Assembly: GCA_964570845.1 (NCBI GenBank)
Contig: CAZMZB010000001.1
Span: forward strand, 143,473-207,472
Source of the DNA: an uncultured Candidatus Saccharibacteria bacterium
GTDB lineage: Bacteria; Patescibacteriota; Saccharimonadia; Saccharimonadales; Saccharimonadaceae
DNA length: 64,000 nucleotides
Direction of reading: 5' to 3'
Made by a program: the position numbers and the translations under genes. Below, in pieces: positions 36,766 through 60,234 of the stretch (position 1 is the stretch's first letter; each line of letters begins with the position of its first letter). The notes beneath the pieces are model-generated. The model worked only from the letters and a program-made list of their open reading frames with translations, was not told the DNA's origin and searched no databases.

Positions 36766-36869
36766 TGCATAACAGTATATCGTGTTCTGAATTATTAGAG
36801 TAAAATAAGTCTATAAGAAAACATTAGCGCTAACAGCCGAAATTGCTTATAGTATATAGAAGTGGGCAT

Positions 36870-38654: not shown

Positions 38655-38658
38655 AAAT

Positions 38659-39891: not shown

Positions 39892-39966
39892 CCAAACAGA
39901 GAAAAAATAGTTCAATCACTATTCCTCTTATGCTATACTGGCAATAATAATGAACAGTGGGCAACT

Positions 39967-41597: not shown

Positions 41598-42253
41598 TGA
41601 AAAAAGGAAGCTTAAACGCTGTTATTCTAGAGAGGTTACTCATCATTGGTATCATACCTCTCATTGGTGTTTCCATTTTTGTGATCCATTCCCTCTTTGG
41701 AGTTTTGGAGCAAAAGTCAAAAGAAGCCAGTCATGCAAATATAGACTCAGAAGTAGGTGCTGAAAATATTAATGATCTCAAGAAGCTTGAGGAAAAACTA
41801 GCCCAAAATCAAGATGTGGCCAGGCGTGCAGCCGCTATTGTAGCTGATAGCAAGCAATATCGTTATCAGGATCAGATTGTTAACGATATTAACACGTACG
41901 CTGCTGCAGCAGGTGTTACAATTTTAGGTTTTGATTTTAACGAAAATAGCGAGGGTACAAATACTGAGGGCAATGCGACGTCAACTGAAGGTACATCCTC
42001 TACCGGTAACTCGACAGCCACTCAACAAGCACCACCAAGTAATACATCGGCTACGGCAGCACCAGGCTTAAAGACAGTTAACGCTTCAATTCAACTTGAT
42101 AGCCCCATTCCCCTCACTGACTTCCTTATATTTTTAAAATATATTGAGCAAAATGTTACAAAAATGCAGATTACAGGTGTTACATTAACTCCTGCGGAAG
42201 ATCCGAATCTTATTTCGAATCCCACCATCAACATAACAGTGTATACGAGGTAA
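41594..42253 (+). CDS. pilO: PilO-like bitopic pilus alignment protein
   Basis: 219 aa, single TM then coiled coil and a low-complexity T/S-rich insert. The call rests on position after pilN plus topology; sequence evidence is weak. Confidence 0.5.
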   Translation: MMKKGSLNAVILERLLIIGIIPLIGVSIFVIHSLFGVLEQKSKEASHANIDSEVGAENINDLKKLEEKLAQNQDVARRAAAIVADSKQYRYQDQIVNDINTYAAAAGVTILGFDFNENSEGTNTEGNATSTEGTSSTGNSTATQQAPPSNTSATAAPGLKTVNASIQLDSPIPLTDFLIFLKYIEQNVTKMQITGVTLTPAEDPNLISNPTINITVYTR

Positions 42254-42258
42254 TAAAA

Positions 42259-42564
42259 ATGAAGAAAATTAACATAGCAGCAATCAAGCGAAAAACACTT
42301 TCTATCTTTAAGCCGATTATTTCACACCATGCAATTATTTTTATCATACTGTCATTACTCTTTCTTATGTACATCGTCTACACTACACAGAGAATTCTTA
42401 CCAACACTGAAGATACTGCATACAAGAGTAGAGCTGAGCAAAAAGGTACTACAACGACATTCGATGAAGAAACTATCAAAAAGGTTGAGCAACTACAGTA
42501 TCGCAGAGATGCCTTGAAGCCAGAACTTCCTACTAATGGTCGTATTAATCCTTTTGCCGAGTAG
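42259..42564 (+). CDS. Small bitopic membrane protein in the pilus operon
   Basis: 101 aa, one TM helix, 5 nt after the pilO-like gene. Confidence 0.55.
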   Translation: MKKINIAAIKRKTLSIFKPIISHHAIIFIILSLLFLMYIVYTTQRILTNTEDTAYKSRAEQKGTTTTFDEETIKKVEQLQYRRDALKPELPTNGRINPFAE

Positions 42565-42592
42565 AATATAAGATAACTGTTATAATACTATT

Positions 42593-43180
42593 ATGTTAAT
42601 GCTTTCTCAGCGCTTAATAAATAAGCCCGTCATGAGCTTACAGACTGGTGCTGAAATTGCCCACACTAAAAAAGCGATTATTGACCCTCGCAACTTACAG
42701 GTTGTTGGCTATTTTGTTGTAAGTAAAATTAAAAATGATCCGTCTTTAATTCTTAAAATTACTGATATTAGAGAGGTTAGCAATGTTGGCTTCATTATCG
42801 ATTCCATTGACGAAATCTTACCCGAAGCTGATTTACTGCGTATTCAAGAAATAACCCAACTGCAATTCGATCTCATTGATCTATCAGTCGTTGATGAGAA
42901 TAAGCATAAACTAGGTAAAGTTATCGATTACGGTATCGATCCGCTTACTTTCATGATCCATCAACTTCATATCAAGCAACCGCTGCTTAAAAGCTTACAA
43001 GTTGCTGAACTACTCATCAATCGTACTCAAATCATTGAAATTAATGACAATGAGATTATTGTAAGAGAAGCAAGTGCCCGAGATGTTGAAAAATATCAGG
43101 CTCCTGCCACACCAAACGCGGACTTCATTAATCCTTTTAGAAAACCACAAGCTGAAAGTAAACAGGCTACTCCTCAGTAA
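42593..43180 (+). CDS. Tandem PRC-barrel-like protein, last gene of the pilus operon
   Basis: 195 aa; two repeats resembling PRC barrels (VMSLQTGAEIAHTKKAIIDPRNLQVVGYFV and LSVVDENKHKLGKVIDYGIDPLTFMIHQLHI). Confidence 0.55.
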   Translation: MLMLSQRLINKPVMSLQTGAEIAHTKKAIIDPRNLQVVGYFVVSKIKNDPSLILKITDIREVSNVGFIIDSIDEILPEADLLRIQEITQLQFDLIDLSVVDENKHKLGKVIDYGIDPLTFMIHQLHIKQPLLKSLQVAELLINRTQIIEINDNEIIVREASARDVEKYQAPATPNADFINPFRKPQAESKQATPQ

Positions 43181-43799
43181 GTGCTTGCTTGATGTCATCA
43201 TACAAAAAGCCTTGTCTTGCTAAATAGGCGATGAGCTTTTGTTCATCATTGTAACGATTTTTCTTTTTCTCAATAACTTTTCTTAGTTCTCCATAATCAC
43301 TGCGCCCTGTCACTTCAAGATACTTTTCAATAATAGACTGCTCAATGCCTTTAGACCTGAGCTCACTAATGAGTTTTCTTTTACTCACCCCTTTTGTAAG
43401 CCTACGGTTTTCAATCCAAAAGCTCACAAATTTTTCATCATTAATATATCCTTTTTCCTGCAGTCTCTCAAAAATTCGTTTTGTAATTTCAGGTGAAACT
43501 CCCTCTTTTTTCTTGCCGTCTTTTCTTCTTGTATTGCGTGTTTTTTTAAAAAGATACTCTTTCACTTCTTTTTCACTATGCGGGCGAGACAAGCAATACT
43601 CAAGCGTTCTTGTATAAAGCCTGCCAAACTGGCTCTCCTGCTCCAACCCAATCAGCTCTTCTTCGGAATATTCTTTACCTAGCTTAAGCCCAAGCTCGCC
43701 AACCTGAAAAATATCTAATGAAAATCGATACTTCCCGTCAACGTCAATATTCACTCTATTCTTATTTTTTTGTTGAACAGTAATTGCAGTGATTTTCAT
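43167..43799 (-). CDS. recX: RecA regulator RecX
   Basis: 210 aa of three-helix repeats, located downstream of recA. Confidence 0.85.
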   Translation of the reverse strand: MKITAITVQQKNKNRVNIDVDGKYRFSLDIFQVGELGLKLGKEYSEEELIGLEQESQFGRLYTRTLEYCLSRPHSEKEVKEYLFKKTRNTRRKDGKKKEGVSPEITKRIFERLQEKGYINDEKFVSFWIENRRLTKGVSKRKLISELRSKGIEQSIIEKYLEVTGRSDYGELRKVIEKKKNRYNDEQKLIAYLARQGFLYDDIKQALTEE

Positions 43800-43966
43800 T
43801 GGGAATACTTTTCAACGGCACGCTTGTATGTATGAGGAGGGTTAGCGCGGTTTAGCGCCTCAGACTCTTTCTTCCAAGCATATAAATCAATAAGCTTGAT
43901 GTGCTTCATAGACATAGCCATCGCAATATCACCCCAAGAGTCTTTGAGTGTAATTTGCTTTGTCAT
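43796..43966 (-). CDS. Possible 56-aa protein between recA and recX
   Basis: Hand-found ORF MTKQITLKDSWGDIAMAMSMKHIKLIDLYAWKKESEALNRANPPHTYKRAVEKYSQ. Its ATG lies 4 nt after the recA stop and its TGA overlaps the recX ATG (ATGA). Below the track size cutoff. Confidence 0.45.
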   Translation of the reverse strand: MTKQITLKDSWGDIAMAMSMKHIKLIDLYAWKKESEALNRANPPHTYKRAVEKYSQ

Positions 43967-43970
43967 AAGT

Positions 43971-44996
43971 TTAACTTTCTTGTTCGGCTACTTTCGCTCG
44001 AATTTTTTTATCAACTTCTGCTAAGACTTTTGGATTTTCTTTGAAATATGCTTTTGTTTTGTCGCGGCCTTGACCGATTGTTTCGCCGTTATATTTATAG
44101 AATGCTCCAGACTTATCAATAATTCCATATTTCTCAGCTAGATCAATGGTATCACCAGTTTTTGAAATTCCCTCGTTATACATAATATCAAATTCAGCAA
44201 TTCTAAATGGTGGTGCAATTTTATTCTTCACTACCTTCACTTTTGTTCTGTTACCCTTTACTTCTTCACCAACTTTAATTTGTCCAATGCGACGAATATC
44301 AAGACGAACTGAAGAATAAAATTTGAGCGCATTTCCCCCAGCAGTCGTCTCAGGATTACCAAACATCACACCAATCTTCATGCGAATTTGGTTAATGAAA
44401 ATCACTGTTGCTTTTGATTTATTAATAATTCCTGTCAATTTTCGAAGCGCCTGACTCATAAGTCGTGCCTGTAAGCCAACATGCGTATCACCCATTTCGC
44501 CTTCAATTTCTGCTTGCGGAACAAGTGCCGCAACAGAGTCGATTACCACAAGGTCAACCGCATTTGAACGAACAAGTGTTTCTGCAATTTCAAGCGCCTG
44601 CTCGCCATTATCTGGTTGACTCACCAATAGGTTATCAGTGTCTACACCAAGCTTCTTTGCATATGCCGGGTCAAGCGCGTGTTCCGCGTCAATAAATGCC
44701 GCTGTACCGCCTTGCTTTTGCACTTCAGCAATTGCATGCAAAGTCAGTGTCGTTTTTCCTGAGCTCTCAGGACCATAGACTTCAATCACACGTCCTTTTG
44801 GATAGCCCCCACCAAGTGCAATGTCTAATCCCAATGTCCCAGACGGAATGAGCTCAACATCGGCTTTGTGATTTTCACCAAGCTTCATAATTGAACCATC
44901 TCCAAATTGCTTAGTAATTTGATCGACTGCTAGCCCGAGTGCTTTTAATTTTCCATCGTCTGTTTTTGCAGCTGTAGCTTTCTTCTTTTCTGCCAT
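43971..44996 (-). CDS. recA: Recombinase RecA
   Basis: 341 aa; [13 protein letters not shown] Walker [12 protein letters not shown]1/L2 loop region. Unmistakable RecA. Confidence 0.97.
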
Positions 44997-45059
44997 TTCT
45001 ACCCTCTCCTAAATCATTTAATCCTAACTATATTATACGTGATTTGTTACAATACTTAC

Positions 45060-45455
45060 ATGCTAAGAACTCGTGGATTTACAGTTATCGAACTTATCGT
45101 ACTCATTATCTTACTATTTGCTATTGGGTTGGTCGTATTTATTCAAGTGCAAGATATTCGTGCATCTGAACGTGACAATCAACGAAAGTCTGATATTAAC
45201 GCCATCTACTATGGGCTTGAAGAAGTTTTTTATGAAAAAAACAATTATTACCCAGAAAGAATTAGCGCGAAAGTATTACCTTACGTAAGCCCTGAATCTT
45301 TCAAAGACCCGAATGGCTATGAAATTAATAATCGAAAATCTGATTATCGCTATAATCCAAGTGGTTGTGTTGGAGGAAAGTGCGAAGGCTACTCGCTACG
45401 TTCAGTGCTACAAAAAGAAGCGGATTTTGTTAAAACTGAAAAATCTAATCCTTAG
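45060..45455 (+). CDS. Type IV pilin-like protein (orphan)
   Basis: MLRTRG/FTVIELIVLIILLFAIGLVVF prepilin N-terminus. Two Cys near the C-terminus. Divergent from recA. Confidence 0.8.
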   Translation: MLRTRGFTVIELIVLIILLFAIGLVVFIQVQDIRASERDNQRKSDINAIYYGLEEVFYEKNNYYPERISAKVLPYVSPESFKDPNGYEINNRKSDYRYNPSGCVGGKCEGYSLRSVLQKEADFVKTEKSNP

Positions 45456-46182
45456 TGAATGACCTGCCACCTTTAAATGCTTCGACTGCATTATTGAGTG
45501 TTGCAATTTCTCTCTTTGGATCTGCGACAAAGGAAAATTGATACGTTGTTTCATCTCCTTCTGTTGAAAGGCGAATAGAACCATAGCCGAAGAGATGTGC
45601 CAAGATACCATCTTGACGAAAACTAGCATCCTCAACATCAGCTAAGCTGACAGTTTGCTCGTGTTTAGAGAGTGGAGTGAATTGCAATTCTTGGATAACA
45701 CTTTCGTTTGTGAGAAAAAACTTATTATTTCTATATACCCACACCGCAACATAGGCAACAAGAGTGCAAAGCACAACAAAGACAGTCGCAAATAATAATG
45801 TCTCTCCGTAACTTGGCATCCTTACTGCTTCAGAAAGAGCAGAATAGTTAAGCAATCCAAAGAAAGTAATGATGATAAGCAGGGCTGCACCTACAATAGG
45901 TAGTATCATACCTATTGGATGTCTTCTCACAGCACTGACAACATATTCCCCTTCACTCAAATTTAATTGCGGGTATTTCCTTACAGACTCTTCGTGTTTT
46001 TTCTTTAGCTCGGGACTTATTTCAGGCTTTTGCGGCTCAACTGAACGCTCAATATGAACGACTTGTGGTGCCTTTTCTTGTTGCGGTAGAGTCTGGGGAG
46101 GATGAGCATAAAGAGGATTACCATTGGCGTCATAAGCAACTGGCTGATTATAATCTTGCTGCTTTGTTTCCTTGTTGCTCAT
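45445..46182 (-). CDS. Membrane protein with bacterial PH (YdbS/YdbT-like) domain
   Basis: Pro/Gln-rich N-terminus, two TM helices flanked by the EGEYVVSAVRRHPIG motif. Start moved to ATG 46182 to clear the ruvB stop. Confidence 0.65.
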   Translation of the reverse strand: MSNKETKQQDYNQPVAYDANGNPLYAHPPQTLPQQEKAPQVVHIERSVEPQKPEISPELKKKHEESVRKYPQLNLSEGEYVVSAVRRHPIGMILPIVGAALLIIITFFGLLNYSALSEAVRMPSYGETLLFATVFVVLCTLVAYVAVWVYRNNKFFLTNESVIQELQFTPLSKHEQTVSLADVEDASFRQDGILAHLFGYGSIRLSTEGDETTYQFSFVADPKREIATLNNAVEAFKGGRSFTKD

Positions 46183-50034: not shown

Positions 50035-51204
50035 TTAAGCATGTACGACAACACCCCTTCCGCGCTTCCCTTGATACTTTCCATCCTCATGTACAGCATC
50101 GTATCTATGCCCCCAAAAAGTCGGATCAAACGGTGTATACAGCTCATGTCCACCCTTGATAATGCCGTCACTGTGTATACCTGAGCGATGCCGATTAATA
50201 TCCCGACCAACGATAGGCGACTGACGACCAACCTCAAGACCTGCATAGTTCATTACTTTATTTGCTACTTCAACAGAAAGGCCAGGGTTAAATTCCCAAT
50301 ATATTGGCACCTCCATATCCGGACTGAATTTAAATAAGCCTGCCACCACTGGAAATACGTCAGCATTGCCAGCACGCTCACCAAGCCCGCAAATGGTTGT
50401 CTCACATTGTATGCGAATCGTTTTATTATGCCGACGTGCATATTCCGCTGCAGCATAAATCAGCATATTCGTATTAGCAACTGCCTGATTAAGATCGTTG
50501 TGATTATGGGCTGAAATAGTCGCTTCTGGATTTATCTGTGTAACCCAATTAATAACTCTGCTGTAGAATTGAAACATCCACTGCGGATCACGCTGCCCTA
50601 CAGTATCTGGCACATTTACTACATCTGCACCTTCTGCTAGTGCTTCTTTTATCACCAGTTCTAAATAATCTGTATTTGTAGTAGATGCCGCTTCTGCAGA
50701 AAATTCAACGGTTGCAGTTTGATGATCGGCGGATAATTTCTTAGCAAATCGTACCGCTTCTTTACCCATAGTCAAAATATTTTCAGGGGTTTTATCAGGA
50801 AATCGCCAACGCATATGCTCAGAATCCGTTGGAATAAATGTATGAATACGCGGCCTCCTTGCTTTATGTACGGCATCCCAAGTAATTTCAATGTCTTCTA
50901 ACGCAGCTCGTGCAAGTCCGGCAACTACAGGGCTGCGTTTTATATTTTCTACAATTCTTCCATTACGCCATTCAGTAACTTCATATTCAATTTGACCGAC
51001 TGTCCCAGCAACATCCCGCACCTCCTCTGCATCACTCAGGGTAGCTGGAAAGCCTGCCTCAATTACCCCAATTCCAAGTCGCGCAATATGGTGGGCAATC
51101 TCAGCTTTTTTGCCATCTGAAAATTGATTGCTCTCTGGTAATGATTGTGCACCATCTCTTTCAGTTGTATCAAAAACAGTTACTTCAACCAACGGTTCAC
51201 TCAT
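50035..51204 (-). CDS. DRE-TIM (HMGL-like) 2-isopropylmalate/homocitrate/citramalate synthase-family enzyme, catalytic domain only
   Basis: FDTTERDGAQS and SAHNHNDLNQAVANT (HxH metal motif). About 390 aa, so no LeuA-type C-terminal regulatory domain. ATG at 51204 follows GAGGAG. Confidence 0.85.
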   Translation of the reverse strand: MSEPLVEVTVFDTTERDGAQSLPESNQFSDGKKAEIAHHIARLGIGVIEAGFPATLSDAEEVRDVAGTVGQIEYEVTEWRNGRIVENIKRSPVVAGLARAALEDIEITWDAVHKARRPRIHTFIPTDSEHMRWRFPDKTPENILTMGKEAVRFAKKLSADHQTATVEFSAEAASTTNTDYLELVIKEALAEGADVVNVPDTVGQRDPQWMFQFYSRVINWVTQINPEATISAHNHNDLNQAVANTNMLIYAAAEYARRHNKTIRIQCETTICGLGERAGNADVFPVVAGLFKFSPDMEVPIYWEFNPGLSVEVANKVMNYAGLEVGRQSPIVGRDINRHRSGIHSDGIIKGGHELYTPFDPTFWGHRYDAVHEDGKYQGKRGRGVVVHA

Positions 51205-51224
51205 ATATATTCTCCTCAAAAATT

Positions 51225-51345
51225 ACATATTAAAATCAGGCTTCGTTGAAGCCTGATTTAATTCGATCCTGGCTGTGCGGAAAACGCGTTTAGCGCTCAG
51301 GCTCCAACCATGTGAAGCACAGCCGAGAAAGGCTGAGGAGAAGTC
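51225..51345 (-). promoter_or_regulatory. 5' leader with terminator/antiterminator architecture (unclassified attenuator or riboswitch candidate)
   Basis: Terminator AAAUCAGGCUUC-AACG-GAAGCCUGAUUU plus U-rich tail ends about 25 nt before the ATG. Upstream GGAGCCUGA can pair with the terminator 5' arm. An 8-bp helix GGCUGUGC/GCACAGCC and a competing CAGCC/GGCUG helix are also present. Confidence 0.5.
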
Positions 51346-51426
51346 CTAAACTATGTTTCCGATCTAATATCATATATGTCTCATTATAGCTTATAGTAAC
51401 TATTCCACAATATTATAGTGAAATAA

Positions 51427-51939
51427 TTACCAAGGACGATATTCTGTTTCTGTGCCAGTTATGATTTCTTGGCTACCGTAGGTAAAAGCATGTCTATTCC
51501 AAAAGGACACACTGTCGCTAGTAGCATTAGTCGATTGCGGGAATGGCTCATCATTCTCTTCATCAAAAACTCCGATCCACGCACTCGATAAAAGGTAGTC
51601 ATTATTTGTCTGGCGAACTAGATGCATTGCCACAGTAGAGCAAGCATCCCCTTTGCGGTTCTTCGCAAAAGGTACAAGACCATCATCTTCCCTATTTTTC
51701 CTAACTCCGTACACTAATCTGTCATTTTCATTCGTTTCAACAACATCACAGACACCAATTGTGCGACCCATATCCACATGAGTTTTTATCTCGTCACCTT
51801 CTAAACTCATTCGAGAAATGGCTTCTATGAGAAGCCTCTTTAATTGAGGAGTGTCATCGATATGAGTAGCAGCATGCGAATCCACGGGGTCATAGACGAC
51901 TCGTATTTCATTCTTGGATTTTGCAAGTAGCTCATTCAT
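51427..51939 (-). CDS. Hypothetical protein
   Basis: 170 aa soluble ORF, no motif I can name. Lies between the leader above and the accessory island. Confidence 0.6.
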   Translation of the reverse strand: MNELLAKSKNEIRVVYDPVDSHAATHIDDTPQLKRLLIEAISRMSLEGDEIKTHVDMGRTIGVCDVVETNENDRLVYGVRKNREDDGLVPFAKNRKGDACSTVAMHLVRQTNNDYLLSSAWIGVFDEENDEPFPQSTNATSDSVSFWNRHAFTYGSQEIITGTETEYRPW

Positions 51940-51950
51940 TATTTAATGAT

Positions 51951-51982
51951 AACAAAAAGAGCCGTTGTCTGCTCTTTTTGTT
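51951..51982. terminator. Bidirectional hairpin (A/T-flanked 12-bp stem)
   Basis: AACAAAAAGAGC - 8 nt - GCTCTTTTTGTT read directly. Confidence 0.55.
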
Positions 51983-52177
51983 ATACTTGCAAAAATTGCG
52001 ATTGTGGAGGTCCAGCAAGGAAAGAGTTTATATATTTTTATTGAGGAACTGATGAGGCTGAGAGAGCTACTGGATACTCAATATCAACAGCACAGATTGG
52101 AGAAACACTAGAAGGATAGTTTACTCCCTGTAGTATTTATAGTGCCTAGGAGGCTTATTCTAGAAACTAGCCATTAG

Positions 52178-52408
52178 CTATGTTGGGTCCTCTTTTGAAA
52201 GCTGCATGATTGAATCGATATTCTCTTTTATGATTTCATCAAAACCTAGCTTTGGATTCGCATAACTATATCTATCTATTATATTTATAGTTGTGTCGCT
52301 AGGCTTAACTCCATAATTTTTAAGTGCTTCACGTATTTCTTTTCGACGCTCAAATCTAACGCCTGCTTTCTTCTGGTGCTCTTCACGCCCCTCGTCCTTC
52401 TTGTTCAC
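52178..52408 (-). CDS. Small hypothetical protein downstream of the methyltransferase
   Basis: 76 aa, GTG start, no clear SD, charged N-terminus. No family recognised. Confidence 0.4.
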   Translation of the reverse strand: MNKKDEGREEHQKKAGVRFERRKEIREALKNYGVKPSDTTINIIDRYSYANPKLGFDEIIKENIDSIMQLSKEDPT

Positions 52409-52435
52409 ATCACTTATCGCTTAACTAGGTTAGAT

Positions 52436-53428
52436 TTATCCGAGTTCAAGTGTAGCATTCATACCTATAGGTTTAAATTCAACTACCCTATCTAATGGGG
52501 CAGGGTCCAAAGCTGGGTTTAAATACGACGATAACTGTAGTGCGACTGATCGAATTGCAGGCACTGCGACAGCATTACCAAACTGCTTATACGCTTGGTT
52601 ATCGCTGACTACAATCTTGAATGATTCTGGGAATCCCTGCAGGCGTGCTGCTTCTCGCGGAGTAAGTTTTCGAGGATTTTTACCTTTCTGCTCAATTAAG
52701 ATTTCCGAACCATCCTTATAGTAGCGGGCAGACATTGTACTAGTGTAGGGTGAATCTGCATTAAAGAGTGAGTACCCAAAACCATTCCCCTTAGCTTTAT
52801 GTTGCTCTTTTCTTCGTTGAGCTCCAGCCCAAAGTCGATCAGATATCGTATATTTATCATCGACGTTATCCTCGAGGATATCACCGACTTTAACTGGACT
52901 CATCGGAGGGTCTGCGAAGTCAAAGTCAATATCATCTCGTAATGCCACTATAAAAATCCTCTGTCTATTTTGAGGTACCCCAAAATCTTTAGCGTTATGA
53001 ACTTTATAGTGCACTGTATAACCTAGCTCTTCTCTTAAAACATTCAGTATAGTTTTAAAAGTATTACCTTTATCATGACCGACTAAGCCTTTGACATTTT
53101 CAAGAAACAAAACTTTAGGCCTATGTATTTCTGCTATTTTGGCAATATTAAAAAAGAGGTTTCCTCGCTCGTCTTCAAATCCCTTCTTTAGCCCAGCATG
53201 TGAAAATGGCTGGCATGGAAATCCTGCAAGTAATACATCAAAACTAGGGATGTTCTCGGGTTCAATCTTCGTAATATCACCGTGAGGCATTTCTCCAAAA
53301 TTTTCTGCATACGTTTGTTTAGCAAACTTATCCCATTCTGACGTAAAGACACATTTTCCGCCAATCTCTTCAAACGGAATTCTAATTCCCCCGATACCTG
53401 CAAATAAGTCTATGAACTTAAATGACAT
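52436..53428 (-). CDS. DNA (cytosine-5)-methyltransferase
   Basis: Motif I DLFAGIGG, IV GFPCQPFS, VI ENVKGL, VIII QNRQRIFIV, X GNAVAVP. ATG at 53428 follows GGAGGGGAG. Confidence 0.9.
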   Translation of the reverse strand: MSFKFIDLFAGIGGIRIPFEEIGGKCVFTSEWDKFAKQTYAENFGEMPHGDITKIEPENIPSFDVLLAGFPCQPFSHAGLKKGFEDERGNLFFNIAKIAEIHRPKVLFLENVKGLVGHDKGNTFKTILNVLREELGYTVHYKVHNAKDFGVPQNRQRIFIVALRDDIDFDFADPPMSPVKVGDILEDNVDDKYTISDRLWAGAQRRKEQHKAKGNGFGYSLFNADSPYTSTMSARYYKDGSEILIEQKGKNPRKLTPREAARLQGFPESFKIVVSDNQAYKQFGNAVAVPAIRSVALQLSSYLNPALDPAPLDRVVEFKPIGMNATLELG

Positions 53429-53509
53429 ACTCCCCTCCATTTTCGTTTTTATTAATCATAACCATTATAACACTATTGCCCCGGGGGTAAATAATATTAT
53501 CTAGTATAC

Positions 53510-54298
53510 TTAGTAATATCTTGCTGTAACCAGATTATCCCAGAAAGAATTATTCGCTCTCCATTGTGAATAATTTCTCCCATTCGTTTGATACATGCCA
53601 GAGTCAAAGAAGACATCTCCAGCTCGTACTGATTCAATCCATTTATCAAACGTTATTGGATCACCAAAGGCAATCGATCTATAAATGCCACCTGCATCCT
53701 TCTCGCACTTGAACCAACCCTTATCATTAAACTTTGACTCTACTCTTTTTTTCAAGGTTTTTGCATCCCATCGCGCTAGTGTCAATCCTTCTTCCTGCAA
53801 TTCCGAAGGTACAATTCGAGGCTTATTAGGTCTCTTATCTTTAGAGTATGAGTAGAGGGCTTCAATATTATTATCTTCGTCCACTATAAGCTTTTGACCA
53901 AACTGATTCCATTTTCCAATCTGCGGAACTGGTTCACCAGACCATGAAAACCTTCCGTTCTTCTTTGCATTTGGCTTACCGAATACCTGCATAAACTCAT
54001 CGCGCGTAATAGAGTAGTTATTGTCTTTAAAAATGTAGTAGTTAGCTGACCAATCCCCAAATGTAGTCTTCGATGTAGTTCCATTCTTCATTTCATATCC
54101 AAAAATATCAGGTGCATTACTCGCATTAGGAGAAACGCCCATTGCAGCCTCTAACCAATGGCCATCTTTTCCAGAATGCTTTACATTTGCTAACGCACTA
54201 TCAGCCTTCTTCCCCAAAACCTTATCCCTAAAAAGTTCAACGATAGCCCTTCTATCTTCAGGTATTGCTACAATGGGCTGCGTATTATTGTCATCCAT
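53510..54298 (-). CDS. Type II restriction endonuclease, MutH/MvaI/BcnI-like PD-(D/E)XK
   Basis: HSGKDGHWLEAAMGV...APDIFGYEMK matches the MutH/Sau3AI/MvaI-BcnI style D...ExK core. Adjacent to and co-oriented with the C5 methyltransferase. Specificity not inferable. Confidence 0.65.
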   Translation of the reverse strand: MDDNNTQPIVAIPEDRRAIVELFRDKVLGKKADSALANVKHSGKDGHWLEAAMGVSPNASNAPDIFGYEMKNGTTSKTTFGDWSANYYIFKDNNYSITRDEFMQVFGKPNAKKNGRFSWSGEPVPQIGKWNQFGQKLIVDEDNNIEALYSYSKDKRPNKPRIVPSELQEEGLTLARWDAKTLKKRVESKFNDKGWFKCEKDAGGIYRSIAFGDPITFDKWIESVRAGDVFFDSGMYQTNGRNYSQWRANNSFWDNLVTARYY

Positions 54299-54530
54299 AT
54301 ATGTGAATATTATTTCATAATCACAGTAAGTTTGGAAGTACAAACAACCAATAGATGCTCCTTTATCATCAGCTAATCCTTGGCTAAATAAAAAAGCTTA
54401 AATCTCCGCTACACAAAACCTTGATAAACTGGAGTGTAATATATTTTTACTTATGATTGTTATAGAATTATAGATAGCAGAGATGGAGTGGGCCAGTTTT
54501 GTTTACAATAATTAAGAGATAGGCTACTAA

Positions 54531-56411
54531 ATGAAAATCGTTGGCGCAATAATTGAAAACTTTAGAAGTATAGAGAGTCTTACAATAGACTTAACTCCAG
54601 AGGGCGATTGTAGCGCCAGAGTTTTAACCGGAATTAATGAGTCTGGCAAAAGTAATATACTTAAAGCCCTTGCTCTTCTATCTAGCGAGAATAAACTCAC
54701 CTATTCTAAAGATGTAAACAAAAAAGCAAAGAGTGAAAAAAAAGACATAGAAGTCAGATATGAGCTTGACTCAAGTGCGGCATCCATCCTACTAGACCAT
54801 CTTGAATCAAAAGGAGTTGCTAAAGAGATAATCGATAACATCGATATCAACTATATTGAACGAGTTGTTTCATTTGACTCTTCGTCAGCACGCAATGACT
54901 ATTTTCTCATATACCTAGAAGATGCCCCTGACCTACCTGATTATTCACACTCTGAAACTAAGGGGTTCATTAAGACTGATGATACTTCATCGGAAGAGTC
55001 GGAGCCTAGTGCTTTAACTCCAGCAACACCTCAACTTGAAAAAGATAAAGCTCTTGAGGAAAAGAAGGATTGGGAAGAGGTTTTAGAAGATGTGTATGCC
55101 CACGATGCTTTAGAGGCGAGTATACCAAGAGTTATATTTTGGTCATACAAAGATAAGTATCTTATTAATAAGGAGATTAATCTAACAAATTTTTCAGCTA
55201 ATCCTGCAACCGTATCTAAGCCACTTCATAATGTATTCAATCTCGCAAAATACACTGACGCTCAAATACCAGCAGTAATTAATGATGCACTTGAGGATGG
55301 CTCCCAAATGGGAGAGCTTGCAGATAAATTAGAGACAACCGTAACAGAATATCTCGAGGATGTCTGGCCAGAGCATCGAGTTAGCATCAAGGTGCTCACT
55401 GCAAACCCTACAATATCGTTTCATGTGGTAGAAAAAGATGTTCCTGCTGGAGGTAGGTATGAGGTAGCTGAACGAAGTGACGGATTTAAGCATTTCTTTG
55501 CAATCTTACTTAACTTAGCTGCAGAGAATTCTACCTCTCAGCTAAAAGACTGTTTAGTGCTCCTTGACGAGCCTGAAGTGCATTTACACCCATCAGGCGC
55601 TAAGTACTTGCGAGATCAGCTTCTAAAGATAGCTGGGCTTAACACTCTCGTTTATAGTACCCATTCTATATTCATGATTGACAGATCTTGTCTCGATAGA
55701 CACTATAAGGTGCATAAAGAAGATGAGACCACCCAAATACTTAAGATTGATAGCTCAAACCCATTCAAAGAAGAGTTAGTATACGAGGCACTTGGTACGA
55801 GTGTTCTAGACCTTATAAGCGAACATAACGTTCTTTTTGAAGGGTTAACAGATAAAAAGCTGTTTGAAGCATTTACTCATAAGTATCGTTCTGAAATTAA
55901 ACCCCTTGATATCACGACAATGAGCGTTGATGGCGAGACTCACTTTGATAAGTATTGTAAGTTTTTTAACAAAAAGAATATTAAAGGCTATATTATAGCT
56001 GACTCTGACAAGGACGGCGTAAGTGCACAAAAGAGAATATTAGCTAATAATTCACCTGAGTATAACGAGCGAAATACTTTTACCATAAATGATATTTTTA
56101 ACACCAAAAAGAAATCATGCCTCGAAGACTTAATTCCAAGCGCTGTTCTTGAAGCATGCATAAATGATTATTCTGGCATTACTATCGTACTTGAGGAATC
56201 AAAAACTTTTGCAGAACAAATTGCCGAATACAATAGTAAGAATGCTAAAAAAATTGATATTAATGGGCTGAAGATGTTTATCTGCGATTTTGTGTGTGAT
56301 GATATCTCTAAACGCACAATGACTAAAGAAAAAACTAAGCAAAAATACCCAGAATATCATGAGTTCTTAGTAAATCTTCATCAGAAGCTTAAAACTGCAA
56401 ACACAGCTTAG
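54531..56411 (+). CDS. OLD-family ATP-dependent nuclease (ABC-type ATPase + TOPRIM)
   Basis: N-terminal IENFRSIESL...GINESGKSNILKAL, Walker B LLDEPEVHLHP, C-terminal TOPRIM (VLFEGLTDKKL ... IIADSDKDG). No helicase partner adjacent. Confidence 0.85.
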   Translation: MKIVGAIIENFRSIESLTIDLTPEGDCSARVLTGINESGKSNILKALALLSSENKLTYSKDVNKKAKSEKKDIEVRYELDSSAASILLDHLESKGVAKEIIDNIDINYIERVVSFDSSSARNDYFLIYLEDAPDLPDYSHSETKGFIKTDDTSSEESEPSALTPATPQLEKDKALEEKKDWEEVLEDVYAHDALEASIPRVIFWSYKDKYLINKEINLTNFSANPATVSKPLHNVFNLAKYTDAQIPAVINDALEDGSQMGELADKLETTVTEYLEDVWPEHRVSIKVLTANPTISFHVVEKDVPAGGRYEVAERSDGFKHFFAILLNLAAENSTSQLKDCLVLLDEPEVHLHPSGAKYLRDQLLKIAGLNTLVYSTHSIFMIDRSCLDRHYKVHKEDETTQILKIDSSNPFKEELVYEALGTSVLDLISEHNVLFEGLTDKKLFEAFTHKYRSEIKPLDITTMSVDGETHFDKYCKFFNKKNIKGYIIADSDKDGVSAQKRILANNSPEYNERNTFTINDIFNTKKKSCLEDLIPSAVLEACINDYSGITIVLEESKTFAEQIAEYNSKNAKKIDINGLKMFICDFVCDDISKRTMTKEKTKQKYPEYHEFLVNLHQKLKTANTA

Positions 56412-56593
56412 CAGGGGTCTGCTCGTTTTTCCATTTCTTGCTTAATATAATACTCAGCAATACCATGAAGCAGCATCACCACTTCCGCCACTCGTTCGTC
56501 TGTCAGTTCATCAGATATCTCTTTACCAAGTAGCTTACGGGCTTCTTTGACGGATATTATTGGTTTTGTGGTAGTTCTATCTATTTTGGTCAT
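56408..56593 (-). CDS. Small helical hypothetical protein (last gene of 3-gene operon)
   Basis: 61 aa. ISVKEARKLLGKE resembles the first helix of excisionase/MerR-type HTHs (weak). The start overlaps the previous gene by 17 nt. Confidence 0.45.
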   Translation of the reverse strand: MTKIDRTTTKPIISVKEARKLLGKEISDELTDERVAEVVMLLHGIAEYYIKQEMEKRADPC

Positions 56594-56801
56594 TGCGAAT
56601 ATTCGAATTCATAAAACCACGCTTTGCCATAGCTTCATCGAAGCGTTTATCCATATAGAGAAGATCTGGCCATATACCTAGTGTGAAGTAGTTAAAGGTG
56701 ATTAATCTTCCAAAGGATACTTTCTCTCCAAGATAAAAGCGGTTAATTGGCAAGAACCAGCTGCATACAGTGAGTATTTTGTAAGTATTACGATCTTTCA
56801 T
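56577..56801 (-). CDS. Small membrane protein with TM2-like RFYLG motif
   Basis: 74 aa; CSWFLPINRFYLGEKVSFGRLITFNYFTLGIWPDLLYM. Confidence 0.5.
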   Translation of the reverse strand: MKDRNTYKILTVCSWFLPINRFYLGEKVSFGRLITFNYFTLGIWPDLLYMDKRFDEAMAKRGFMNSNIRNDQNR

Positions 56802-56803
56802 GG

Positions 56804-57292
56804 TTATTTCTGCTCCTCTACAGTGATTACATAGTCTCTAACTGATGATGAGTTGATAAATAGGTAGTAATTGCCTGCTGGCTTTTGCATAATCTTCTCG
56901 TCGCTCTGAGTACCGATTGTCGTGATGTCTTGAACGGCAATGTTCTGCTCTCCCTGAGCATTGCGGGTTGTTGTCCAGCCTTCTGGCAATAGGTAAATAA
57001 AAGCTGTTCCGCTATCTGAAACTGTGTTTACTGTGTATTTCACACGGATGTTACCGCCGCTGAGCGCAAAGACTTCTCCGCTTTTTTCTTTGTTATCTCC
57101 AGTGAGTTCGGATACCTTCACCCACTTTTTAGGTTCTGCTACTTCTTTAGCTTTCTCTTCTCCACTATTTGCTGTTTCTTCGGTTGGTGTTTCAGAACCT
57201 ATGACATTGCCGATGAATGCTAGTGCTAAAACGATAATGACCCATATCCACCACTTCTTGTACCATGCTTTTTTACTATTGTGTTTATCCAT
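56804..57292 (-). CDS. Bitopic membrane protein with extracytoplasmic beta-rich domain
   Basis: ATG at 57292 follows GGAGGG. KKAWYKKWWIWVIIVLALAFIGNVIG anchor, then a roughly 110-aa domain (VFALSGGNIRVKYTVNTVSDSGTAFIYLLPEGW...YYLFINSS). Confidence 0.65.
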   Translation of the reverse strand: MDKHNSKKAWYKKWWIWVIIVLALAFIGNVIGSETPTEETANSGEEKAKEVAEPKKWVKVSELTGDNKEKSGEVFALSGGNIRVKYTVNTVSDSGTAFIYLLPEGWTTTRNAQGEQNIAVQDITTIGTQSDEKIMQKPAGNYYLFINSSSVRDYVITVEEQK

Positions 57293-57370
57293 TTTGGAGC
57301 CCTCCTTAGACTCGTTTGATTTATTTATACGGGTCTCCAAAATTAAAAGAGGACGGCCCGCAATCAGGTC

Positions 57371-57476
57371 GTCTAAACCAGTACTAAGCTTGCGCTAAAT
57401 ACTTTATTGATGCGTGCCGCCCATTTCTAAGCACAAGCAACGCACAAAGATCTGTGCACTTAATACTGGTTTAGAC
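57371..57476. repeat. 18-bp inverted repeat arms separated by 70 bp
   Basis: GTCTAAACCAGTACTAAG (57371-57388) versus CTTAATACTGGTTTAGAC (57459-57476): 17/18 complementary, read directly. Confidence 0.85.
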
Positions 57477-57504
57477 ATTATTAATTATAGCGCAAAGTTC
57501 AAAA

Positions 57505-57526
57505 ACAGTGAGATAACAGTGAGATA
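57505..57526. repeat. Perfect tandem 11-bp direct repeat (ACAGTGAGATA x2)
   Basis: Read directly. Lies 15 nt upstream of a TATAAT (57541-57546) that sits 6 nt before the wHTH gene ATG. Confidence 0.9.
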
Positions 57527-57552
57527 GTACAATTATTAGATATAATCTACCT

Positions 57553-58236
57553 ATGACATCTAGATACCAAAGAAAACAGGAATTGCTTAACCTTAGAGCC
57601 CAGAAAATGCGTGACGATGCGAATATTGAAGATAGATTAAATTTTCAACGCCCGACTGACTCTACTCTGTACAAATTTCTAGATACTTTTCTTGAAAACT
57701 ATAGCTGGCGTGAAGATATTTTTAGCGATAGTATAAATTTGTCAGTTTTTGAAAGTAACGATACAAGCGATTCCTATAAAATTACCGAGGAAAGTCAGAA
57801 TCTCTACGATACACTACGCTGGCTTAGTAGCAATAAGTACCTTTTCCTTGCTAATAACCATGACGGAACAGTGACCTTAAATAATGTTAACGATGAAGAG
57901 CTCTATGAGCTAATGGCTGGGCTAAAGCCCCACATCAGTCCCGCCATTGTCATATATAATCCAACCACTAAAGAAGTCTGGTTTAATGGTCGAAAACACA
58001 AGCTACAACGAGGAAAGAATTTAAAAATATTTCACCTGTTAGCTACAAATCAAAACGAACGATTATCGAAAGAGGCGGTTTGGCGATCAATAGGCTTTCG
58101 TAAAACGAAAAAACGAGATACATCAGACTTTAGCAAACTAGTTGCTAATGTCCGCACCTCTGTGGATGCAAGTTTAGAAGAGATTCAACTTGCTGAAACA
58201 TTGACACTTCACGCTGATGTAAAAATTATAGATTAG
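57553..58236 (+). CDS. Protein with C-terminal OmpR/PhoB-type winged-helix DNA-binding domain
   Basis: 227 aa. The C-terminal part VWFNGRKHKLQRGKNLKIFHLLATNQNERLSKEAVWRSIG resembles trans_reg_C. No receiver domain. The N-terminal 130 aa are unassigned. Confidence 0.65.
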   Translation: MTSRYQRKQELLNLRAQKMRDDANIEDRLNFQRPTDSTLYKFLDTFLENYSWREDIFSDSINLSVFESNDTSDSYKITEESQNLYDTLRWLSSNKYLFLANNHDGTVTLNNVNDEELYELMAGLKPHISPAIVIYNPTTKEVWFNGRKHKLQRGKNLKIFHLLATNQNERLSKEAVWRSIGFRKTKKRDTSDFSKLVANVRTSVDASLEEIQLAETLTLHADVKIID

Positions 58237-58345
58237 ACATCTTCCAATTAAAACGAATTTTAGTATTTTATATTAATTTTTACCCCTGTTATGAACGTAT
58301 AATCTAGGTTCGATAGCTTCCAAAAAAACTTCTAAAATAAGAAGT

Positions 58346-58501
58346 ATGTTCGCGAAAGAAGAGCAAGAAAAAATAATAAATAGTGAGTATGAAAGGGCTT
58401 TCACTGAGCTTGCTAGTTTTCTTTTTGAGCAATACCGAGAACAAAAAGAAGTTCAAGAAGCAATGAATGATATAGAGCAGGACGAGTCTTGTCAAAGTTA
58501 A
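58346..58501 (+). CDS. Possible 51-aa acidic protein upstream of the recombinase
   Basis: Hand-found ORF MFAKEEQEKIINSEYERAFTELASFLFEQYREQKEVQEAMNDIEQDESCQS. The palindrome ACTTCT-AAAATA-AGAAGT abuts the ATG. Below the track cutoff. Confidence 0.3.
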   Translation: MFAKEEQEKIINSEYERAFTELASFLFEQYREQKEVQEAMNDIEQDESCQS

Positions 58502-58548
58502 TATATTATTTCATAGAATATATAATAATTAATAGGAAGGAATAACTT

Positions 58549-60234
58549 ATGAATAAAAAAGTAAAAGCAATCGCCCTTTGTCGGGTGTCAACAATGAAGC
58601 AAAAGGAAGACGGTAATCTTACCCCACAAAAAAAGAACGTAGAGATGGCCGCAGACGTACTAGATGCAGATCTTGTAAAGATTTGGGAGCTGGTAGTCTC
58701 CAGCCGTAAAGGCAAAAATATGAACCGCAAAGACCTGCGAGAAATGCATGATTACTGCAAGCGTTACAGGCCAGTTAAATATCTCATTGTTGATGAGGTA
58801 GACCGCTTCATGCGCTCTATTGATGAATATTTTTGGTGGAAGATGGAATTCAAACTCATAGGCGTTAGGCTCGTACATGCAACTCGACCCGACATTAACC
58901 CTGATGATGACAGAGCTGTATTTGACGAGTTGATTGATGTTTACCGAGCAGAACAAAGCAATAATGAACGTATCAAGAAAACACCTGAAAAGCAAAAGGC
59001 TCGACTTTACGCAGGCTACTATCCGAGCAACCCTCATACTGGTTATAAAAAATCGGAAATACCCGGCTTACACATTCCAGATGAACCAAATTGGTCGGCA
59101 ATGCGTACTTCATTCAGGGCAATGGCTGCTGGCGAATATAGCGTTGAAGAAGGACTCAGGCAGGCAACAGGCAGAGGCTTAAGGACAAAAAATTATGGTC
59201 CAAAAGCTATAGGCGGCAAAGAGATAGATATGTATCGTTGGAAAGAGCTGATGATAGACCCATATTATTGCGGCATCATGAAGTTCGCTGATTGGGATTT
59301 AGGCGAACAGCCTATCAAGGGAATTCATAAGCCAATGATTACCGTAGAAGAACATAAGATTCTTGTACACCTAGTAAAAAATAAGGGTAAACGGTTTACG
59401 GTTAAGAGAAATAACCCAGACTATCCATTTGCCAACCAAGCCGAATGCGCTAGATGCACCCTATCAGAATATAAGCACCCTCGGTTAACGGGTGCAACAC
59501 AGAATAATGGCGCTGCAAAGGGCTATAAACAATATAAACGATATAGATGCAGGGCCTGTAATCTAGAAGTAAGACAAGAAGTCTTCCACCAAGAAATAAG
59601 CGAGGAGCTATCACAGCTCCTCCTTTCATATGAACAGAAAGATAAGCTAAGACAACATGCTCGTAAGATATGGTCGCTACATGAGAAAACTCGTATAGAG
59701 CAAGCTCACATAGAATCTAATAAGTTGGCTATTTTAAAAGAACGCAAGAAAAAAATACTAGATTCATTGATCGAGGCTGAAGATGACCTTGTGAAAGACT
59801 TAAAGGAGAGGCTGGGAGAGTTGCGCAACGATATTGCAGAGGCTGAGAAAAATACTGCTGAAGCGCAAGACTTTGAGAAAGACTTTCATGAGTTCATCGA
59901 CTTTGTATTTGATTTTATGGATAACTTACAGAGTAAATGGTGGAAATTAGATAAGCAGACGATGGGAATATATAAACAAATGCTATTTCCTGCTGGAATT
60001 CAGCTATTACCAAATAAAAAAGTTTATATACCCAAAATTAGCCCTATTTACCTCTATAAAAACAAAAAACAGCCCCCAAAAAAGGCTGATTCTTCTAGAC
60101 TGGAGGGGCCACTGGGACTCGAACCCAGGACACCCTGCTTAAAAGGCAGGTGCTCTAACCAGCTGAGCTATGGCCCCGTAAAGCGTTACTTCGCTCAAAA
60201 AACAGTAACATTTTTACCACACCTCTGTCAATGA
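58549..60234 (+). CDS. Large serine recombinase (integrase); last roughly 55 codons are read-through across tRNA-Lys
   Basis: Catalytic N-domain AIALCRVSTMKQ and LIVDEVDRFMRS, a recombinase domain, a zinc ribbon (CARC...CRAC) and a long coiled coil. The first in-frame stop is at 60232-60234, beyond the tRNA gene. Confidence 0.9.
   Translation: MNKKVKAIALCRVSTMKQKEDGNLTPQKKNVEMAADVLDADLVKIWELVVSSRKGKNMNRKDLREMHDYCKRYRPVKYLIVDEVDRFMRSIDEYFWWKMEFKLIGVRLVHATRPDINPDDDRAVFDELIDVYRAEQSNNERIKKTPEKQKARLYAGYYPSNPHTGYKKSEIPGLHIPDEPNWSAMRTSFRAMAAGEYSVEEGLRQATGRGLRTKNYGPKAIGGKEIDMYRWKELMIDPYYCGIMKFADWDLGEQPIKGIHKPMITVEEHKILVHLVKNKGKRFTVKRNNPDYPFANQAECARCTLSEYKHPRLTGATQNNGAAKGYKQYKRYRCRACNLEVRQEVFHQEISEELSQLLLSYEQKDKLRQHARKIWSLHEKTRIEQAHIESNKLAILKERKKKILDSLIEAEDDLVKDLKERLGELRNDIAEAEKNTAEAQDFEKDFHEFIDFVFDFMDNLQSKWWKLDKQTMGIYKQMLFPAGIQLLPNKKVYIPKISPIYLYKNKKQPPKKADSSRLEGPLGLEPRTPCLKGRCSNQLSYGPVKRYFAQKTVTFLPHLCQ
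60070..60088 (-). terminator. Intrinsic terminator of tRNA-Lys(UUU), embedded in the recombinase ORF
   Basis: Minus strand CAGCC-UUUUUUGGG-GGCUG followed by UUUUUUG, 12 nt after the tRNA CCA end. Confidence 0.6.
60101..60177 (-). tRNA. tRNA-Lys (anticodon UUU)
   Basis: 77 nt; acceptor GGGGCCA/UGGCCCC, anticodon arm CCUGC-CUUUUAA-GCAGG, T arm CUGGG-UUCGAGU-CCCAG, encoded CCA. Confidence 0.95.

Follow-up and report, generated by a model that had tools for sequence, protein, structure and literature searches.

We report on an 8,096-bp genomic island in a 64,000-nucleotide stretch of DNA (hereafter the window) from an uncultured Candidatus Saccharibacteria bacterium (assembly GCA_964570845.1, contig CAZMZB010000001.1, positions 143,473 to 207,472). 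The island is inserted exactly at the tRNA-Lys(UUU) gene's 3' end. Very probably it is an integrative element, mobilised by a large serine recombinase (LSR) that targets the CCA end of this tRNA and carrying a restriction-modification (R-M) system, an OLD-family nuclease and a cassette of small membrane proteins. The attachment site of the element, attP, is located inside the 3' end of the LSR gene itself. Integration therefore swaps the last 33 codons of that gene for a peptide encoded by tRNA-antisense sequence, and the displaced codons remain at the far end of the island, attL, 8 kb from the LSR gene.

The limits of the island were set by comparison with contigs in which the site is empty. 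Contigs were found through an exact match to the 170-aa protein encoded immediately left of the island, which retrieved four contigs from one sample series. In L004 (SRR16797979) and L005 (SRR16797978) the flanking gene runs directly into the 3' end of tRNA-Lys, which is joined to window position 52004 and below in these two independent samples. A BLASTN alignment of L004 covers window positions 52010-41427 and 60158-60101, both at 100.000% identity and with an overlap of 6 nt; there are 0 mismatches over 10,584 bp in L004, and 0 mismatches over 9,850 bp with the same 6-nt junction overlap in L005. Since no mismatch is found in about 10 kb of flank, the island was gained or lost within a clonal population. 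The occupied allele is identical in L002, L003 and L170. A first-pass annotation, made from the letters of the sequence alone, had described a mobile defence island at 51940-60234 and proposed looking for an empty site beside the tRNA gene. The island stands, with its true ends at 52005/52011 and 60100/60106, and the empty site was found in L004 and L005, which lack the island and are 100.000% identical over 10.6 and 9.9 kb.

On the forward strand the left junction reads GCGATTG/TGGAGG/TCCAGC (52005-52010) and the right junction TCTAGAC/TGGAGG/GGCCAC (60101-60106), where slashes delimit the shared core. TGGAGG is the reverse complement of CCTCCA, the final six bases of the tRNA, encoded CCA included. 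A repeat search for long direct repeats at the island ends returned chance-level matches only. This is as expected for a serine recombinase, and the boundaries were taken from the empty-site contig instead. The tRNA is unchanged by the insertion: L004 ends with 58 nt of the gene, and over this compared part the empty and the occupied allele do not differ. A terminator hairpin provided by the island lies 12 nt past the tRNA 3' end. An Rfam search gave nothing but tRNA above threshold; a match to 'Plastid-ycf2 5UTR' opposite the tRNA gene (60103-60177, + strand) scored 35 bits against a gathering threshold of 65.7 and looks spurious.

Housekeeping genes flank the island: to its left lie ruvB, ruvA, a HAD hydrolase, ruvC, yebC and an HMGL-like synthase, and to its right genes for a 162-aa membrane protein, DUF192, dnaJ and dnaK. 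By a DnaJ scan of species-representative genomes the window belongs to Saccharibacteria (TM7), the closest genome having 90% DnaJ identity. None of 80 related Saccharibacteria genomes has island genes at the corresponding locus, and many of them keep a backbone in which DUF192, the membrane protein and tRNA-Lys(UUU) are followed, after 1.5-4.7 kb, by yebC. The guanine-plus-cytosine (GC) content of the island is 38.45%, compared to 41.35% in the rest of the window (z = -3.1), and its tetranucleotide distance has a z of +5.8; both values, the lowest GC and the largest distance, are the most extreme when set against 88 background windows of the same size. This composition and the absence from relatives support a foreign origin. 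The first-pass annotation had called the block mobile and horizontally acquired, and had listed a C5 methyltransferase, an endonuclease, an OLD nuclease, an LSR, tRNA-Lys and the ruv/yebC and dnaJ/dnaK flanks. All of these genes were recovered in the open reading frame (ORF), tRNA and profile searches, and the empty site, the deviating composition, the intact LSR and the absence from the locus in 80 genomes agree with the mobile reading. The opposite picture that it had sketched, of a block conserved in relatives with a degenerate recombinase, was seen neither in these genomes nor in the LSR, whose catalytic motifs are intact.

Joining the two island ends gives a reconstructed attP, ...GCTGATTCTTCTAGAC-TGGA-GG-TCCA-GCAAGGAAAGAG..., with the centre ...CTAGAC TGGA GG TCCA GCAAGG.... 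At different lengths, the predicted attP junction reads ...TTCTAGACTGGAGGTCCAGCAAGG... or ...GATTCTTCTAGACTGGAGGTCCAGCAAGGAAAG..., and the empty attB junction reads ...GCGATTGTGGAGGGGCCACTGG.... A perfect CTGGA/TCCAG inverted repeat flanks the central GG, and a weaker symmetry extends farther out, with TTC....CTGGA on both arms. As read from the reconstructed site, this is the usual layout of a serine-integrase site: the 6-nt core alone is shared between the recombining sites, and inverted repeats surround a putative 2-bp crossover. The core architecture in relatives is TGGA-GG-TCCA for Lys, TGGT-AC-ACCA for Arg and TGGT-GG-ACGA for Val targets. Because the same design recurs with other bases in the Arg and Val relatives, we place the likely crossover dinucleotide at core positions 5-6, that is the GG at 52009-52010, corresponding to tRNA nucleotides 71-72. 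The tRNA half of attB is near-universal: of 56 tRNA-Lys(UUU) genes from Saccharibacteria, 54 have the 3' end CCCTCCA.

The LSR has the catalytic motifs RVST at residue 12 and DRFMRS at residue 85. Residues R12, S14, D85, R86 and R89 are invariant across 33 and across 63 LSR homologues, and four invariant Cys residues are present. Single-sequence PDB searches with the LSR, the OLD nuclease and the restriction enzyme returned nothing. An AlphaFold2 model of a 64%-identical, uninterrupted homologue (P0025; predicted local distance difference test, pLDDT, 84.8) shows every domain expected of a large serine integrase, namely a catalytic domain, a recombinase domain and a zinc-ribbon domain with an embedded coiled coil. 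Foldseek aligned 490-550 columns of this model to the full-length integrase complexes 9dxd, 9dxh, 9iu2 and 9rah with E values of 1e-13 to 1e-9, and the best PDB matches are integrase-DNA complexes including those of Bxb1 and phiC31. By its motifs and the fold of this homologue the LSR is intact rather than degenerate, and serine-integrase activity is predicted.

Residues 1-519 of the integrated LSR are encoded by the island, and residues 520-561 are encoded by the antisense strand of tRNA-Lys and the host flank. The LSR does lie against the tRNA gene, as had been annotated, but its ORF also reads through that gene in antisense. The integrated protein reads …RLE/GPLGLEPRTPCLKGRCSNQLSYGPV… and ends at 561 aa, whereas the reconstructed circle form reads …RLE/VQQGKSLYIFIEELMRLRELLDTQYQQHRLEKH and ends at 552 aa; the orphan 3' end at attL would rejoin the LSR gene in an excised circle. 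The pooled ratio of non-synonymous to synonymous polymorphism (pN/pS) of the tail codons in eight Lys(UUU)-type elements is 0.39 in the LSR frame, against 0.80 and 1.23 in the other frames, although the tail is detached from the LSR gene in seven of the eight. The low ratio in the LSR frame marks the tail as a selected protein segment, its codons being under purifying selection. Apparent LSR remnants beside tRNA-Lys in many Nanosynbacter genomes (tblastn, residues 481-545) were rejected: the matches were lost once the tRNA-encoded part of the query was removed, and they are an artefact of the tRNA and of A-rich sequence.

The same arrangement is found in a large family. A protein search gave 478 LSR relatives, and nearly all of the 120 listed, which are 38-76% identical, end in tRNA-antisense peptides. 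A metagenome scan gave 80 LSR loci with 32-72% identity; among the 63 with the 3' end on the contig, the LSR ORF ends in or beside an antisense tRNA gene at 53. The targets in the family are Lys(UUU), Lys(CUU), Val(GAC), Arg(GCG/UCG) and Glu, to which two IMG/VR loci with 31% identity add Gly(GCC). About 11 homologues are uninterrupted, in attP form, and have a native tail with the consensus LHPLxxExxRWRxII. In one of these, L086, the tail leads into a C5 methyltransferase gene. Another, L172 (Logan, ERR12387302; L172:1-8006), is a closed circle of 7,976 bp with a 30-nt end overlap equal to k-1; it contains an uninterrupted LSR, ORFs of 212 and 44 aa upstream of it, and DUF6996/DUF6997/DUF7226 and DUF7380 cargo. 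With a tail profile, 28 integrated islands (26 when two duplicate contigs are set aside) were seen to have an orphan tail fragment on the same strand at their far end, and in about 20 the tail immediately follows a second copy of the final six bases of the tRNA. These far-end fragments delimit the related islands to 3.5-8.4 kb.

The cargo of the related islands includes an MmeI/Eco57I-type R-M enzyme, KAP NTPases, pairs of a Ser/Thr kinase and a TPR protein, M78 peptidase and DUF4411 genes, an AAA_14 ATPase, an ABC transporter and an adenylosuccinate-lyase-HAD fusion. In L108 (L108:1-8362) an OLD gene with 63% identity is found beside a different R-M pair, consisting of a C5 methyltransferase and a HindVP enzyme. 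Additional recombinase genes were observed at two loci: L108 has a second serine recombinase of 302 aa directly upstream of the large one, and in L087 a 146-aa resolvase-domain ORF adjoins the large recombinase.

The defence cargo of the present island consists of an adjacent type II endonuclease and cognate-type methyltransferase, with catalytic motifs in both, followed by the OLD nuclease. The methyltransferase has the FxGxG, PCQ, ENV, QxRxR and GN motifs, and the endonuclease has a PD...ExK motif, PDIFGYEMK, beginning at residue 78. The endonuclease had been annotated as MutH/MvaI-like; MvaI_BcnI is its second-ranked family (E 9e-12) and LlaMI the first (E 2e-64). Going by the Pfam family name and description, the target of the system would be CCNGG. 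This motif occurs 3 times in the island, where 10.2 ± 3.2 copies are expected (P = 0.008). Elsewhere in the window it is not avoided (99 observed, 96.8 expected); the scarcity in the island lends indirect support to the putative CCNGG specificity and also speaks for a foreign origin. Two of the three island sites overlap as CCCGGG (53480-53485) in the 69-nt gap between the endonuclease and methyltransferase genes, a position which suggests that the methyltransferase promoter may be under methylation-sensitive control.

In the OLD nuclease we found a Walker A motif (GINESGKS at 34), DEPE at 346, and the Toprim motifs EGLTD at 437 and DSD at 491. Its best PADLOC model is 'Old' (E 9e-29), and PADLOC models call both the type II R-M pair and Old, in line with the defence reading of the first-pass annotation. 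Beside the OLD gene there is no helicase of UvrD/RecB type and no AriB-type gene; it is bordered by the restriction enzyme gene and a 61-aa ORF. By domains and neighbours it belongs to class 1, the stand-alone OLD proteins, and nuclease activity is predicted. Two other systems were considered and rejected. Gabija GajA models match the protein at E 6e-25, but the island is without a GajB helicase, and the AriA models of PARIS match the ATPase part only, the Toprim domain being of OLD type (PF20469) and DUF4435 giving no match. The catalytic motifs are intact in all four island enzymes.

The first-pass annotation had proposed an operon of three small membrane proteins. Two of them, of 178 and 74 aa, do look membrane-bound, and the third, of 61 aa, has no visible hydrophobic segment and no family match, and in L173 and L174 it does not accompany the cassette. 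The 178-aa protein is probably 162 aa long, from its second Met. It has a hydrophobic N-terminal stretch, read from its sequence, and homologues are named 'uncharacterized membrane protein' in one source. The 74-aa gene always comes next after the 160-aa homologues of the 178-aa protein, and the pair recurs in the islands L091, L101, L103 and L105 and beside recombinases in L173 and L174; judged by this recurrence, the pair is a regular passenger of such islands. The membrane operon and the winged-helix gene are divergently transcribed, and the promoter region that separates them contains an 18-nt inverted repeat, a possible operator.

The protein annotated as winged helix-turn-helix proved to be one. 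It is 227 aa long and has no Pfam match, and Foldseek matched its modelled C-terminal 100 residues to the DNA-binding domains of ToxR, PhoP, PhoB and OmpR with template modelling (TM) scores of 0.6-0.7, normalised to the target. It has only 26 relatives among 1.8 billion representative proteins, and homologues hold the same position in the two closest islands, L087 and L103. ORFs of 200-260 aa upstream of the LSR in distant islands were considered as further relatives, and no link was found beyond L087, L103 and L101. The 51-aa protein directly upstream of the LSR has no family match above threshold. As both proteins are part of a conserved LSR module, they are more likely to be regulators or a directionality factor than defence genes: the 51-aa protein is the best candidate for the directionality factor, or a regulator, and the modelled fold of the 227-aa protein makes it the likely regulator of the element. 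The suggestion that the unassigned genes have anti-phage functions thus finds only partial support; the 178-aa/74-aa pair has weak superinfection-exclusion similarity. The 76-aa and 61-aa ORFs are orphans; the former has no Pfam match and only marginal PADLOC and PHROGs matches (E 0.0095 and 0.071, with no matched stretch). The coordinates of all features are collected in the table.

Table. Features of the island and its target site (window coordinates).
Feature	Position	Strand	Evidence
attL core TGGAGG	52005-52010		Empty-site contig, exact 6-nt overlap; arrangement shared by ~20 related islands
Orphan LSR 3' end, 33 codons + stop (VQQGKSLYIFIEELMRLRELLDTQYQQHRLEKH*)	52010-52111	+	Tail profile E 1e-19; aligns with tails of uninterrupted relatives
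76-aa orphan ORF, downstream of methyltransferase	52178-52408	-	Called as gene on L002 and L003
C5 cytosine DNA methyltransferase	52436-53440	-	PF00145 E 5e-106; PADLOC MTase_II E 1e-128
LlaMI-family (MvaI/BcnI-related) type II restriction endonuclease	53510-54343	-	PF09562 E 2e-64; PADLOC REase_II E 1e-79
Stand-alone OLD-family nuclease (predicted), ABC ATPase + Toprim	54531-56411	+	AAA_15, AAA_21, OLD-like_TOPRIM (PF20469 E 1e-10)
61-aa ORF, final gene of minus-strand operon	56408-56593	-	Start overlaps end of 74-aa ORF
74-aa protein, second gene of two-gene cassette	56577-56801	-	Weak TM2-domain match E 0.037; RFYLG motif
178-aa membrane-anchored protein	56804-57340	-	phrog_4980 'superinfection exclusion' E 9e-7 (weak)
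18-nt inverted repeat, 94% complementary, arms 70 nt apart	57371-57476 (arms 57371-57388, 57459-57476)		Repeat search
227-aa DNA-binding protein, C-terminal OmpR/PhoB/ToxR-type winged helix	57553-58236	+	AlphaFold2 pLDDT 80
51-aa acidic protein directly upstream of LSR	58346-58501	+	tblastn homologues at same place in most of 25 loci
Large serine recombinase, 561 aa in integrated form	58549-60234	+	PF00239 resolvase domain E 1.6e-11
Island-borne hairpin + T-run, new terminator of tRNA-Lys	60070-60088	-	Terminator scan: CAGCCTTTTTTGGGGGCTG then TTTTTTG
attR core TGGAGG (final 6 nt of tRNA-Lys including encoded CCA)	60101-60106		Empty-site comparison
tRNA-Lys(UUU), integration target	60101-60177	-	ARAGORN (ttt anticodon); Rfam 72.9 bits

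The interval between yebC and tRNA-Lys(UUU) differs among species (window 50035-51939; L006:12020-15121; L087:5396-6856). In the window it holds the HMGL-like synthase, which aligns to the N-terminal ~310 of ~515 LeuA profile positions only, and the 170-aa protein, which matches phrog_23674 (E 5e-10); in L006, the closest relative, it holds ORFs of 473 and 484 aa, and in L087 a competence protein of ComEC type. Possibly this site is an older hotspot. Five Logan contigs (L001-L005) all end inside tRNA-Lys (window 60138-60158), 38-58 nt from the junction, probably due to tRNA k-mers common to other organisms in the samples, and so the break points are no evidence of mobility. A second low-GC stretch (0.37-0.40) was observed left of the ruv genes, at window positions 36000-46000, where recA/recX and several small ORFs without a Pfam match are located.

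The features of the island could be explained as follows. The LSR would recombine attP with the end of the tRNA gene, cutting at the central GG, which from the symmetry of the sites would correspond to the final two base pairs of the acceptor stem. The element would re-supply the discriminator base, the CCA and a new terminator, leaving the tRNA intact. At the same time integration exchanges the RWR-motif tail helix of the LSR for the tRNA-antisense peptide and leaves the tail at attL, so that both the LSR protein and the antisense exposure of the LSR mRNA to tRNA transcription would depend on the integration state; the switch would probably damp or redirect recombinase activity after integration. 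Once in place, the R-M system, the OLD nuclease and the membrane cassette would together protect host and element from phage and other DNA that enters the cell. Candidate routes from cell to cell are natural competence, a known trait of Saccharibacteria, and hitch-hiking on phage.

A further speculation goes beyond the mobility of the island, and we regard it as possible but doubtful. The exchange of the tail, instead of or together with a separate directionality factor, could decide between integration and excision, or govern the stability of the enzyme, and would then act as a self-encoded memory of the integration state. The LSR family would in that case be one widespread in Saccharibacteria and related bacteria, in which attP has evolved inside the ORF of the recombinase and the N73-CCA end of a tRNA serves as half-site.

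Several observations weigh against the interpretation of the island as a mobile defence element with a tail switch. The circle junction of this very element was not seen, and attP-form sequences come from relatives only. In its orphan tail RLR replaces the RWR shown by all eight compared relatives, and the tail stops 7 codons sooner than theirs; this may be the starting decay of an element that no longer needs excision, or natural variation. The tail is modelled as a low-confidence helix after a disordered linker (pLDDT 41-61), with no reliable docking, and its role is consequently a conjecture. All defence phenotypes and the R-M specificity are predicted from family membership only. No replication, transfer or packaging gene was recognised in the island, which leaves the route of horizontal spread unexplained. 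Finally, the cargo of relatives is mixed and not purely defensive, so the family is better seen as a shuttle for cargo in general, in which defence genes are prominent but not the only kind; the present island, by its gene content, is a defence-loaded member.

Because a related locus, L172, assembles as a closed circle of 7,976 bp, the element might normally be a small replicating circle, an integrative plasmid, for which the tRNA gene offers an alternative residence and whose winged-helix protein is the replication initiator. The roughly 8% of listed homologues in uninterrupted attP form fit this idea, as does the selection on the tail codons, which implies regular time spent as a circle. However, neither in the island nor in L172 was a gene for Rep, a primase, a helicase or partition recognised, the winged helix is of the OmpR/ToxR transcription-factor type, and a circular contig can also be obtained from transient excision or from tandem copies. 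We consider a plasmid lifestyle unlikely, and it would be compatible with integration by the LSR at the tRNA. A decayed prophage or phage satellite, packaged and transferred by a helper phage, is very unlikely. The LSR does match a PHROGs phage integrase family (phrog_95, E 7e-29), the 178-aa protein matches superinfection-exclusion families, and two distant relatives (31% identity) are on IMG/VR viral contigs, but these are 2 of 2.9 million viral contigs. Furthermore, Pfam and PHROGs searches gave no capsid, terminase, portal, tail, lysis, packaging or replication gene, and the delimited related islands are all 3.5-8.4 kb long, with non-viral cargo.

Hardly any weight is left for the view that the block is ancestral chromosomal DNA, and that the empty contigs are an unrelated deletion or an assembly artefact. 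Every assembly breaks inside the tRNA gene, where the assembly graphs are tangled, which would suit an artefact. Yet two independent samples place the junction, with its 6-nt core, exactly at the tRNA 3' end, and with 0 mismatches in ~10 kb; the core and orphan-tail architecture recurs in ~20 other islands; the block is at the locus in none of the 80 relatives; and its composition deviates from the rest of the window. An integrative element moved by its LSR remains our preferred explanation.

Mobile elements and defence systems of the candidate phyla radiation (CPR), or Patescibacteria, which are ultra-small bacteria dependent on a host, are poorly charted, and the present case provides a recently active island with exact attachment sites. 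The family reveals shuttles of 3.5-8.4 kb that move R-M systems, OLD nucleases, KAP NTPases, kinases and metabolic genes among such genomes. The genetics of Saccharibacteria at present makes use of natural transformation and homologous recombination (PMC10633639). The LSR, together with an attP of ~50 bp and a target that 54 of the 56 examined tRNA-Lys(UUU) genes contain, could serve as an integration tool in these bacteria. A serine integrase that exchanges its own C-terminus, with a putative coupling to the integration state, also bears on the question of how directionality is controlled.

In comparison with known systems, the LSR resembles Bxb1, phiC31, TP901-1, SPbeta SprA and the CcrAB recombinases of SCCmec in its catalytic serine and its recombinase, zinc-ribbon and coiled-coil domains. 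Like the classical large serine integrases, it has short att sites with imperfect dyad symmetry about a central dinucleotide and a small neighbouring gene as candidate directionality factor. Unlike these, it is remote in sequence, with a profile match to the TP901-1 catalytic domain of only 2e-4, it targets the CCA end of a tRNA, and its attP lies inside its own ORF, which makes its C-terminus state-dependent. To our knowledge, the attP of classical large serine integrases lies outside the int gene.

Integrases of the SSV1 type, tyrosine recombinases of archaeal viruses, also have attP within the int gene, and their integration into tRNA genes partitions int. There a large part of the gene is separated, whereas the island LSR exchanges its ~33 last codons and keeps the catalytic body intact. 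In mycobacteriophage BPs the split gene is reportedly the repressor, and the recombinase is said to be a tyrosine integrase. The split gene of the island is instead the serine recombinase itself, and the functional effect of the swap is conjectural. The integration-dependent immunity of BPs and its relatives involves attP within a gene of the element, integration that alters the C-terminus of the protein, and activity that depends on the state (PMC4557955). We found nothing in the literature on serine-recombinase islands of Saccharibacteria or Patescibacteria, or on attP inside a serine integrase gene, in a search with partial journal coverage.

At the level of the whole element, analogues are known. 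The ssrA islands of Dehalococcoides are reportedly moved by a serine recombinase and are said to insert at the 3' end. The present island has another target and another host, and the likeness is by description only; we found no report of attP within the recombinase gene for the Dehalococcoides islands. These ssrA-specific genomic islands, located at the tmRNA gene, are a system-level analogue (PMC3146451). Tycheposons of Prochlorococcus are small, tRNA-integrated cargo elements of a streamlined genome with variable adaptive or defensive cargo; 910 of 937 use tyrosine recombinases and a minority an LSR, and many carry replication genes (bioRxiv 10.1101/2020.12.28.424599). Judged by this published description, the island is alike in that it carries cargo, targets a tRNA gene, has a site-specific recombinase and resides in a streamlined genome, and differs in belonging to a family which is LSR-only and without a recognisable replication module.

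The OLD nuclease of the island, like phage P2 Old and other class 1 OLD proteins, is a single polypeptide of an ABC ATPase and a Toprim nuclease, with the motifs present and no partner helicase; unlike P2 Old, to which it is similar at profile level only, it sits beside an R-M pair. Three features distinguish the LSR family: the tRNA CCA-end target, attP inside the ORF and the conserved detached tail. The arrangement of the LSR is apparently an undescribed variant, carried by an element that is itself ordinary in kind.

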